Origin: a virus
Lineage: Duplodnaviria > Heunggongvirae > Uroviricota > Caudoviricetes
DNA length: 64,000 nt
Direction: 5' to 3' (one strand)
IMG/VR virus record: IMGVR_UViG_2684622670_000009
Span: 1 to 64,000 of that record
Shown piece by piece: positions 45,501-48,500 of this stretch; the first letter of the stretch is position 1, and each line of letters starts with the position of its first letter. Made by a program: the position numbers.

Positions 45501-48500
45501 ACTGACAGGATTGTGCTGGTGAAATCCACCAGCACGGACAGCAAGAGAAAACCAATGGCGATTGCGATACGTGCCTTGCTTGCCATTACAGATAATCTTC
45601 CACACGAAGACCTAAACGACGGCCTACTTCTTCCAGTACTTTGTGTTCTGCTGGCTCGATTTCACCGTCCGCTTCTGCAATCGTCAGCATGTTAACGAAT
45701 ACTTCTTCCGCTTCTTTTGGGTCGTTTTTGATATCTTCAATTTCGCGAAGGATATTCATGCGACCAACACGGAAGCCAGCTTCCAGTTGCTCGGTAAAGC
45801 GGGTAATTGTTGCGGTAATTTCGTTACCAAAATGACTAAGACGCGGATTAGAGCGGATAAGCTGATCAAGTTTCGCTGTTTCTTCTTTTTTGATTTCACC
45901 ATCAGCGGCAGACACCAACAAACAGCCACCGATAATGGCCTCCATCAGATCGCGATTCTCAACTTTTTTCAGCTCTACTTTTGCAGAAGCGACTTTCTTG
46001 CCGAACAATTTACCGAACATTGGTTATCCCTCAATAAAAGTGACATATTTATTAGATTGCGGTGCCGGGTGCCTCCCGGTGACGTTAACCAGTTAACAAT
46101 TAACGCCGGAATGTTTAATCATCAAGGAGGATTGTTTTAACTGTTCCGCGTGCGCTTAGCCGAATTCACCGCAATGGTAAGAGCACTTGGCTGGCTGGGC
46201 GGCGATGACGCCTGTACGCATTTGGTGATCCGGTTCTGCTTCCGGCATTCGCTTAATTAGCCAAATACTCTTAACGTTGCGCTGGTGGAGAGTAATGGAA
46301 TCGAACCATCATCGCTTGCGCAATGGGACGGTTTTCAAGACCGCTTGAGCGCCATACTCCCTACTCTCCAATGATTGTGGTGGTCGGTGCTGATCTCCGA
46401 CTGCGCCTCTTTTTTTCATAGCCCATAAGGCCGGTCAGTGCGCTTGATGACTGAGGCATCGATATTTACTACGCCGCCTCGTTGCCATAGGGCGGACTTG
46501 CGCGCCAGCAACGCGCATTCACCACAACGGAAAGAGCATTCACGTCTCGCATCGCGGGAAAAAGCCCACGGTAGAGAGTCGAACTCTACAAATGCTCTTA
46601 CCTGTTGTGTTGTGATGACCGGTGCTGATCTCCGGCTTGCGGTTATTTCAGACTCTCACGGGCGTTTAATTGCCCCGCCGGACAGCTCTTTTCCGCAATA
46701 GCTGCAATGTCTTTCGCGCATCAGCCTGCGCATTCATCACAACGGTAAGGGTACTTCGGAGGGATTCGAACCCTCTGCCAAGCTCGGCGATCTCCGACGT
46801 CGCAAAATACCCTTACCTGTTGTGCTGGTGCCGGTTAACGGATTCGAACCGCTGACCTCTGGCCTAACATCGAATCGTTGTCATTTGACCAGCAAGGCTG
46901 TCTACCGAAGTAGAAACGATGCTTTGGCTCTCGTGCTCTCCCACTGAGCTAAACCGGCATTGGCGATGGTGGGTGGATTCGAACCACCGACCAGTTAGTT
47001 AACAGCCAACTGCTCTAACCGCTGAGCTACACCATCACTTGCCGGGTACGTCTCCGGCGAGGGCTTCCACCTCCGTATGCTTTTCGGCGCACCGCGCCCT
47101 GGCTGCAATTCGGTAACAGGGGATGCATAACCCTGGCTTCCAGCGTGATTAGCGCTTTCAGCATGACGGGATATACCCGTAAATTCGTGGAACTGTACCC
47201 AAAGTGCTGTTAAGCACCGCTGTTACGCTGAAAAGAAGACGCAACAGGAAAGGACGCTGACCAACAGATGGCCCCTTCTCGTTCATCTGGTTAATCACAC
47301 CAGCGCCCTTACCTGTTGTGCCTCCCCGTTCCCTAATACACAGACGGGGACACTCTGCGGTCGATTTTTTGACGGGGGACGACTCATACCCCGTGGCGTC
47401 TGGCTTCTTAGGCCGCAGCCATCATCAGATCATCGTTTGCATTTACTTTAATGGTCAGTTTCTAAACCGCCGCAAAGTCGCTAACCATGACGAAAACCCT
47501 GAAAAAACGCCCACCCGAAGATGGGCAAACAGGATGTAAGCTCGTTACGCATTTCGGTATTGCCACTTAGGCGTATGGTCAACCTGGCAACTCGGCGTCA
47601 TGAGGGGGAAGGAGTCACTACCCCGCCATACTTGCCGCCGCGCCTGTCGCGGCTAACAGCTAAATCGCTCTATAAATCACGATTCATTGAAACCATATTA
47701 CACTAATAAATTTATTAGAGCAATATAGCAATAACGTCATGAGCTACACCACGAGTGTTCCCCTTACAAGACACAGAACGTCTGGCAAAAAGAGGTTCCA
47801 CTCTGAAGCCACTGTCTTGGTAAAGCTCCCTGATGTTTGGCGCACCACTATTAGTAATGAGGATCTTTGCACCTCGGCGATGAGCATCCATTAGCAGAGA
47901 TACCAGGCGTTTTTGCTCTTCAAACTTAAAGTCATGACCGGAATAGTTTGTGAACCCCTCTGTATTGGGGAGCGGTTCATACGGAGGATCGCAAAAGATG
48001 ACATCTCCTTCTCCGGCAGCTTCAATCACCGCTGAAAAATCACCACATACAAACTCAGAACGCCCTTCAGCACCGAGGAAGGCTTCCATCTCCTGTAATG
48101 GGAAATACGGAGTTTTATACTTCCCATAACCAACATTAAACTCACCGGCCTGGTTGTAACGCGTCAATCCGTTAAAACAATGTCGGTTCAGGAACAAAAA
48201 CGCTGCTGCACGATGTAAATCATCATAGGCTTGTTTGTTAAACGCATTCCGTACTGCCAGGTATCCTTCCTGTGTGTTGTAGTCCTGGAAAAACCGATGC
48301 GCCAGAGTGATAAGTGAATGTCCCTCACGTTGCAGAGTCCTGTAAAAGTTAATCAGGTCAGCATTCACATCATTTAGCAGATTTTCTTGATATCCGGCAT
48401 TTATGAAGACAGCTCCGCCACCAACGAAAGGCTCGATCAGGCGCTTTCCGTCAGGTAAATGCCTAAAGATTTGTTCAAGAACACCAAATTTTCCGCCGAC

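Follow-up and report, generated by a model that had tools for sequence, protein, structure and literature searches.

Within 64,000 nt of a Caudoviricetes genome (positions 1 to 64,000 of IMG/VR virus record IMGVR_UViG_2684622670_000009; hereafter, the window), a small cluster of transfer RNA (tRNA) genes alternates with long inverted repeats that share nearly the same arms. What are these repeats, and what do they do between tRNA genes? A first-pass annotation had recognized three of them, interleaved with two copies of a second hairpin, and had suggested processing sites, decayed tRNA copies or binding sites for an RNA-binding factor. In this work, we describe the repeats as members of a family of RNA structures with constant arms and replaceable interiors. 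The repeated element is in fact a two-part module, in which the long hairpin is followed by a tRNA-like unit. Among the functions proposed earlier, processing sites are the best supported, given the double-stranded RNA (dsRNA) stems of about 20 bp, their position between tRNAs and small RNAs (sRNAs) and the homology to the late leader of phage lambda, and we discuss how such sites would work.

The Hairpins of the Window

All elements of the array are described as they read on the minus strand, the one that is transcribed, and it is on this strand that the three inverted repeats, confirmed at their reported sites, fold as strong hairpins. Hairpin A (47240–47320; left arm CACAACAGGUAAGGGCGCUG, right arm CAGCGUCCUUUCCUGUUGCG; z score -5.8) had been given as 47241–47318; the hairpin is there, with its end at 47320. 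Its upper stem continues to about 30 bp overall, and in the minimum free energy (MFE) fold the stem reaches 47235–47325. It is identical in P1 and 98.8% identical in P7. Hairpin B (46738–46824; z -5.7) starts 1 nt after the CCA of a tRNA-Thr-like gene and consists of a 23-bp stem topped by a tRNA-like fold devoid of a D arm, made up of an anticodon-like hairpin and the canonical T arm GAGGG-UUCGAAU-CCCUC; it is 98.9% identical in P1, D6, RCS47 and SJ46. Hairpin C (46523–46609; z -5.2) has arms, CACAACAGGUAAGAGCA and UGCUCUUUCCGUUGUG, that match the family consensus exactly, and its interior holds the T-arm-like hairpin GUAGAG-UUCGACU-CUCUAC and a second small hairpin. This type of interior recurs in three IMG/VR loci (L015, L025 and L122). 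The earlier remark that two of the repeats enclose a T-arm-like hairpin applies to B and C. Folding energies of the three hairpins range from -41 to -46 kcal/mol (z -5.2 to -5.8), and none of 200 dinucleotide shuffles folded as well.

The count of three members was incomplete, since a diverged fourth one, hairpin D (46170–46281; arms CGCAACGUUAAGAGUAUUUGG and CCAAGUGCUCUUACCAUUGCG; z -3.9), had been overlooked together with the two-part module. Hairpin D begins 1 nt past the CCA of tRNA-Ser and is 100% identical in P7 and D6. The junctions after CCA read CACCAG/CACAAC for hairpin B and CACCAG/CGCAAC for hairpin D. Hairpins A, B and C differ from the left-arm consensus at 0–3 positions, and D retains the AAGAG/CUCUU core and the basal helix; all four have arms that pair around a variable interior on the transcribed strand, as the family is defined. 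The motif CACAACAGGTAAGGG occurs exactly at 47306–47320 and 46810–46824 and with one mismatch at 46595–46609, each copy pairing with a right arm 50–60 nt downstream; with up to two mismatches allowed, no other copy was found in the window. Hairpins B, C and D are all present when the 791 nt of 46040–46830 are folded as a whole.

Distribution of the Family

The family consensus is CACAAC-A-GGUAAGAGCAUU, a variable interior and AGUGCUCUUUCCGUUGUG; as tested, the left arm CACAAC-A-GGUAAGRGCA pairs with the right arm UGCYCUUWCCGUUGUG. We searched IMG/VR with one exact left-arm pattern and two patterns anchored in the right arm, each of which gave at least 120 matches. Nearly all of the left-arm matches listed open a hairpin whose other arm is (C)AGUGCUCUUUCCGUUGUG. 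In total, at least 277 distinct hairpins were collected, with at least 152 distinct arm pairs and at least 133 interior clusters that have no sequence in common; among the matches listed, interiors are 30–329 nt long, with a median of 56. The search for the motif beyond this phage, proposed in the first-pass annotation, revealed a widespread family, present in lambda, P1, Stx and other lambdoid phages. Its settings are the pR' late leader of lambda, the ban leader of P1, pL/dicB-type leaders of lambdoid phages and prophages of many Enterobacterales.

The P1 reference genome carries three copies, namely A, B and one upstream of an STnc100-like unit (arms CGUAACAGGUAAGAGCA and UGCUCUUUCCGUUGCG; z = -4.9). 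P7 and D6 carry A, D and others. In lambda, the family member lies at 44787–44862, 6 nt past the U tract of tR' and inside the annotated orf-64 (z = -4.1), and is 100% identical across many lambda records. The pL leader of mEp460 has a homologous hairpin, unit 1, a DicF-like sRNA with its terminator and then a second family hairpin, the basal helix of which is compensated (CAAAAC/GUUUUG).

We also searched a collection with one genome per bacterial species (596 Gb), in which the 17-mer was found 102 times. The right arm is present in 48 of these hits and missing from the other 54, a number close to the roughly 70 occurrences of a 17-mer that we estimated to arise by chance in 596 Gb. Approximately 22 of the 48 are identical to lambda and lie mostly on short contigs of non-enteric assemblies, most likely a consequence of contamination of the assemblies with lambda DNA. 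The lambda-identical copies (loci L296, L313, L316, L325, L326, L334, L347, L350, L362, L363, L366 and others) come from assemblies, often of very low coverage, of Pseudoxanthomonas, Psychrobacter, Algoriphagus, Bradyrhizobium, Enterococcus and others. The remaining right-arm hits are distinct copies, and those with titles shown belong to Enterobacterales (Serratia, Yersinia, Rahnella, Pantoea, Klebsiella, Kluyvera, Erwinia, Enterobacter and others).

Evidence for an RNA Structure

In order to evaluate the pairing of the arms, 98 arm pairs were aligned, an artificial GAAA loop being placed between the two arms of each. Of all cells, 92% are paired in the named structure, against 33–63% in slid controls. 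The value of 92% is inflated by the way the set was gathered, with arm-based patterns and a pairing threshold; double changes and slid controls are less affected by this selection. Changes on both sides were found in 14 of the 16 pairs (102 cells), with 44 extra pair types, and none of 500 shuffles reached the observed values of pairing, double changes or pair types. Compensated arm variants include ACUAUC/GAUAGU, CAGAAC/GUUCUG, AAUGACA/UGUCAUU and AAGGGUA/UACCCUU.

The conserved stem has about 19–20 bp, composed of 6 bp, a bulged A and a further 10–13 bp that usually contain a U-U mismatch. The bulged A hardly varies, and the U-U mismatch occupies pair 10-29 in 70 of the 98 arm types. Cells with G-U pairs outnumber those with A-C (150 vs. 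73), under a selection rule that counted Watson-Crick pairs only and was thus blind to the difference between the two. Among the matches listed, neighboring tRNAs lie on the same strand as the hairpin in 41 cases and on the opposite strand in 3. Covariation of the arms, the G-U pairs and the shared orientation with tRNAs together indicate that the hairpin family is an RNA structure.

Hairpins and tRNA-Like Units as Two-Part Modules

The second half of the module takes its first bases from the end of the right arm before it (GUUGUG-GUGAAU) and goes on with a D-arm-like GCGC-N8-GCGC; it ends with a CCGG-AGAUCAGCA-CCGG hairpin and then CAYCACAA, and pairing of the two ends gives a closing stem. 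Among the matches listed, units of the NUGAA type follow the right arm in 170 of 277 hairpins, in a sample that two of the scan patterns bias. In some phages, a true tRNA begins right at the end of the arm, as in GUUGUG/GCAUUAGCUCAG... of a tRNA-Arg. On the other side, a U tract precedes the left arm in 59 of the 277 (again among the matches listed), including tR' of lambda and other Q-type late-leader terminators.

Three such units, all on the minus strand, follow the hairpins of the window. In unit 1 (46609–46743), the closing stem GUUGUGAUGA/UCAUCACAAC surrounds the D-arm-like GCGC-AGGCUGAU-GCGC, a variable body and a T-arm-like hairpin, and the 5' strand is the end of the right arm of hairpin B. 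This unit is 98% identical in the pL leader of mEp460, where it stands directly upstream of the DicF-like sRNA. Unit 2 (46375–46528; closing stem GUUGUGGUG/CACCACAA) has the same architecture. Unit 3 (46058–46173; closing stem UUGCGGUG/CACCGCAA) corresponds to the Rfam family STnc100 (RF02076; 50.3 bits, gathering score 47) and forms the 5' untranslated region of tciA/terB, directly upstream of the tciA start codon. The match runs from model position 31 and shares just its first 4 nt with the right arm, at the extreme end of the latter, so that the hairpins lie outside it. Units 1 and 2 and the hairpins gave no match to RF02076 even at E values up to 10; these two units are structural paralogues of the STnc100 unit that escape Rfam detection.

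The two copies of the second hairpin reported earlier are interleaved with the family as claimed, at 46618–46636 (GCCGG-AGAUCAGCA-CCGGU) and 46383–46401 (GUCGG-AGAUCAGCA-CCGAC), both on the minus strand, and constitute the T-arm-like elements of units 1 and 2, respectively, that is, of units of the STnc100 type. The spacer after hairpin A (47037–47239, minus strand; 98–99.5% identity in P1 and P7) ends in a similar hairpin, GCCGG-AGACGUAC-CCGGC (47041–47058), just before tRNA-Asn, and is possibly a degenerate unit. A unit resembling STnc100 was also observed in the Qin prophage of K-12, between the dicF terminator and the start of dicB (L009, 1650–1790), with a long closing stem around the unit.

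The body of the lambda late-leader unit is homologous to the interior of hairpin D of the window, which suggests that cargo moves between both kinds of slot. Additionally, the GUUGUG strand is common to two mutually exclusive helices, the base of the hairpin and the closing stem of the unit, and the left basal, right basal and unit 3' strands covary. Hairpin D has CGCAAC / AUUGCG / CGCAA at these positions, L020 and L118 have CGUAAC / GUUGCG / CGCAAC, L172 has GUUGUA / UACAAC and L019 has GCUGUGUCAC / GUGACACAGC. The two folds of the lambda leader differ in this respect: the closing stem of the unit appears in the MFE fold, and the family hairpin in the centroid fold, of which it is the largest stem. 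The covariation of the shared strand and the alternative lambda folds suggest that both helices matter.

T-loop-like motifs (GUUCRAHYC) were found in 13 of 133 interior clusters among the matches listed, against about 0.4 expected by our own calculation, an enrichment of approximately 35-fold. A further tRNA-derived element is the gene between tRNA-Asn and hairpin B (46827–46958, minus strand): it has kept three arms of P1 trnT (acceptor, D and T) intact and carries about 75 nt in place of the anticodon arm. P1, P7, D6, RCS47 and Cyrano have a normal tRNA-Thr. This gene looks like a natural tRNA scaffold carrying another RNA and may indicate the route by which the tRNA-like units originated.

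Setting of the Array in the Phage

P7 matches the region 45000–47800 at 96% identity over 83% of its length, and P1, D6, RCS47 and SJ46 also match; by this homology, we assign the window to a P1/P7-like phage. The position of the array between homologs of dmt (47715–51002, minus strand) and ban (43590–44960, minus strand), both identified from the annotation of P7 and P1, places it in the leader of the C1-controlled ban operon, on a minus-strand transcript. The bivalent C1 operator (Op72/Oban; 47695–47726) corresponds, according to the same annotation, to the ban promoter and defines the transcript that carries the array. Along the minus strand, this operator is followed by the dicF-like leader, hairpin A, the spacer, tRNA-Asn (GTT; 46961–47036), the tRNA-Thr-like gene and hairpin B, and then by unit 1, hairpin C, unit 2, tRNA-Ser (TGA; 46283–46369), hairpin D, unit 3 and tciA. 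Three tRNAs are called on this strand, Asn, Ser and Met(Ile).

At its start (47505–47650, minus strand), the ban leader shares homology with the Qin sequence that immediately precedes dicF, and the P1 annotation names a "dicF-like region" at the corresponding site. This segment is closed, upstream of the array, by a hairpin with a U tract resembling an intrinsic terminator (47508–47531, minus strand); the array downstream should therefore need read-through or an internal promoter.

Some other features of the region were observed. Upstream of hairpin A (47330–47500, minus strand) there is a segment GCGACUUUGCGG...UUUAGAAACUGACCA...AAAUGCAAACGAUGA that recurs in four lambdoid contigs (L025, L026, L134 and L182), where it comes directly after family hairpins, and it constitutes another conserved leader module. 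After tRNA-Met(Ile), positions 45100–45235 (minus strand) show 88–100% identity to lambdoid pL leaders (mEp460 and Stx2 phages) and hold UCUGGUGACGUUAAAGG, similar to DicF over the 5' part of the latter; no match to the DicF model of Rfam was obtained there. The plp gene of P1, annotated on the opposite strand (L002, 1901–2278), overlaps hairpin B and the end of tRNA-Thr. Its counterpart in the window (46670–46855, plus strand) has just a 61-amino-acid open reading frame, and the 3' part of P1 plp may be an annotation over-extended across the hairpin. Far from the array, C4 antisense RNA (RF01695) and isrK (RF01394) lie side by side at 19968–20178 (minus strand), taken to be the P1-type immI region.

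Proposed RNase III Punctuation and Alternative Explanations

The classical substrate of RNase III in Escherichia coli is about two helical turns of imperfect dsRNA. The stems of the family agree with such a substrate: they have about 20 bp, tolerate imperfections and are transcribed, in the window, from the ban operon strand. Faubladier et al. reportedly found in 1990 that processing of DicF depends on RNase III and RNase E. Daniels et al. 1988 (Virology 167:568; reference 49 of PMC7547250) reportedly described, judging from the title, RNase III sites in vivo in the lambda late transcript. Based on the geometry of the stem and on the 1988 report, we consider it somewhat probable that the hairpins are RNase III-type punctuation signals that release the neighboring tRNA and sRNA cassettes. 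The hairpin would fold first, cotranscriptionally, and its stem would be cut by host RNase III, detaching the upstream tRNA, terminated leader or previous cassette. With the same cut, GUUGUG at the end of the right arm would become available for pairing with CACAAC at the 3' end of the next tRNA-like unit and could so close it; where a true tRNA follows, RNase P would trim GUUGUG instead.

Some points weigh against this interpretation, besides the selection effect on the percentage of paired cells. Isolated units fold with modest z scores (-1.7 to -2.4). The coincidence of the lambda sites of 1988 with the family hairpin is something that we infer. Moreover, the arm sequence is conserved over more than 130 interiors, which is more than a plain RNase III site would seem to need and hints at a sequence-specific partner or at recent horizontal spread. 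Arm conservation may reflect determinants of RNase III reactivity, another partner, or a rapid horizontal spread in which the arms act as recombination anchors.

This last possibility leads to an explanation at the DNA level, in which the arms are short patches of homology where temperate phages exchange cassettes of tRNAs and sRNAs through recombination, with the RNA hairpin as a by-product. Homology with the window does break at the arms: the P1 match stops at the end of hairpin B, that of RCS47 inside the left arm of C, and that of mEp460 runs from the right arm of B to just before the left arm of C. Also in agreement are the presence of the same cargo in different stems, as in the lambda unit body and hairpin D, and the existence of at least 133 unrelated interiors between near-identical arms. 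Nevertheless, linkers need no complementarity, yet compensatory changes keep the arms paired, conservation extends to the bulged A and the U-U mismatch, and the preference of G-U over A-C and the fixed orientation relative to tRNAs and transcription point to RNA; we regard this explanation as unlikely. Both explanations are compatible, since processing hairpins can double as recombination hot spots, and the breakpoints, as judged from sequence comparison, support a role as recombination anchors as a possible secondary effect. A scaffold or platform, whose interior would be the product (a phage-specific small RNA or a T-loop decoy) freed from the constant stem in the manner of a pre-miRNA or of an intervening sequence of ribosomal RNA, or whose stem would bind a host protein other than RNase III, seems rather improbable to us. 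Constant flanks around a hypervariable interior, arms conserved in sequence beyond pairing, the excess of T-loop-like motifs and the D-arm-less fold on top of hairpin B all fit it, but most interiors, at 30–329 nt, have no recognizable common motif or length and no Rfam family matches them. A folding switch is doubtful, in spite of the two mutually exclusive stems, both backed by covariation, the opposite choices of the lambda MFE and centroid folds and the position of unit 3 immediately before the tciA start codon. In such a switch, hairpin and closing stem would compete for GUUGUG and control an STnc100-type unit or the translation of tciA/terB or dicB, with no cleavage involved; the hairpin is far more stable than the closing stem, which demands a trigger, and none is evident, and many hairpins precede true tRNAs or modules without such a 3' strand.

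The suggestion of decayed tRNA copies, extended here to host-type repeats without present function, draws on the T-arm-like hairpins inside B and C and on the tRNA cluster itself. It retains some value for the interiors and following units, with their T-loop excess and acceptor, D and T features, but not for the arms, which are conserved and covary over hundreds of copies with unrelated interiors. This pattern largely refutes decay, which we consider very improbable as an explanation for the family. In addition, neither ARAGORN, with and without introns, nor the Rfam tRNA model called the hairpins, and the same searches left the tRNA-Thr-like gene uncalled; a functional or intron-containing tRNA was rejected on these grounds. 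A host repeat of the REP/ERIC type, which the first-pass annotation had named as a finding that would overturn its view, was likewise rejected: within the window the family is confined to one 1.2-kb stretch (46170–47320), and no copy was found in the K-12 prophages DLP12 and Qin, the parts of K-12 scanned, with the chromosome as a whole outside the scan. The least credible of the alternatives is that the hairpins are sponges for the host sRNA GcvB. AgvB, a phage anti-GcvB RNA, acts through a CACAACA-type motif (PMC4104026), and all consensus left arms, as well as the 3' ends of units, contain CACAACA, the target consensus of GcvB R1; the right arm CCUUACCGUUGUGAUG is similar to CUUACGGUUGUGAUG of GcvB. 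However, predicted duplexes with GcvB are no better in energy than those of shuffles (fraction at least as good 0.08–0.65), CACAACA lies hidden within a strong stem, no match to the AgvB model of Rfam (RF02702) was obtained, and compensatory variants such as ACUAUC/GAUAGU drop CACAACA yet keep the stem.

The preferred interpretation, punctuation by RNase III, has consequences for how long noncoding leaders are seen. A conserved RNA structure, missing from their annotation, would be present in two model phages, lambda and P1, and a single family would explain the build of long noncoding leaders of temperate phages, with their tRNAs, sRNAs of the DicF, STnc100 and Pas types and the region upstream of Shiga toxin. 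The family would serve as a simple marker of cassette boundaries, and thereby as a route to new phage sRNAs, and in the model RNase III would link the maturation of neighboring cassettes. As a speculation that we think unlikely, hairpin and unit may form a general cassette system of phages, in which the constant stem, once cut by RNase III, would hand GUUGUG on to the next unit, and any RNA cargo, in whichever of the two slots, would come out as a small RNA that is stable and end-protected. If so, the hypervariable interiors and unit bodies would represent a large unexplored reservoir of phage-specific regulatory or decoy RNAs, and the system would be a natural counterpart of pri-miRNA (primary microRNA) clusters and of engineered tRNA scaffolds.

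Comparison with Known Systems

In Rfam 15, no family covers the hairpins at any threshold, and at E values up to 10 the only Rfam matches were chance miRNA-like ones on hairpin A. The hairpins are not annotated in the P1 and lambda reference records, the core sequence was not found in the searchable literature, and no description of the family was met with under the P1 ban operon, tRNA-like prophage RNAs or lambda late-leader processing. Stems cut by RNase III are a known kind of element in phage leaders; a family with constant arms, a replaceable interior, repeated use and a shared strand appears to be undescribed.

The closest relatives of the units are the STnc100/PasD prophage sRNAs (RF02076), of which the unit after hairpin D is a match. 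Units 1 and 2 share the STnc100 plan: they begin with GUGAAU, have a closing stem and carry, on the 3' side, a CCGG hairpin and then CACCACAA. STnc100/PasD RNAs and the array also have a common genomic setting, in prophage leaders near TerB, Q and holin genes. A 2026 bioRxiv preprint on Pas/STnc100 sRNAs (10.64898/2026.05.13.724894) makes no mention of the hairpins in the sections consulted. In the units, as in engineered tRNA scaffolds, the parts that resemble acceptor, D arm and T arm are retained and the anticodon region between them is replaced. Like the spacers of tRNA operons, family hairpins start 1 nt after the CCA of a tRNA and end directly where a tRNA or tRNA-like unit has its +1. 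Spacers between host tRNAs differ from these conserved 20-bp stems in that they are short and AU-rich and serve as RNase E sites; the units escape tRNA detection.

Integron attC sites are also imperfect inverted repeats with conserved ends, extrahelical bases, a variable center and a fixed orientation between cassettes. We rejected this identity: GCACAAC and GTTGTGG each break the core sites RYYYAAC and GTTRRRY at one or two positions, and one-sided changes are kept as G-U pairs, covariation of the RNA type and not that of folded single-stranded DNA. No integron integrase was noticed in these phages, in which no systematic search for one was made.

The best comparison is with the RNase III stem-loops of the lambda late and N leaders, the T7 early region and the dicB operon around DicF, in which an imperfect dsRNA stem of about 20 bp likewise stands between functional RNAs; the intervening sequences that RNase III excises from 23S ribosomal RNA likewise have a variable interior and a constant stem. 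The lambda late leader itself holds one family member, in a transcript with reported in vivo RNase III sites. Unlike in the known stems, a single sequence family with putative cleavage sites is here reused several times within one transcript and across phages as different as P1, lambda, Stx and other lambdoid phages, with a conserved bulged A and U-U mismatch and a strand that is shared with the next cassette.

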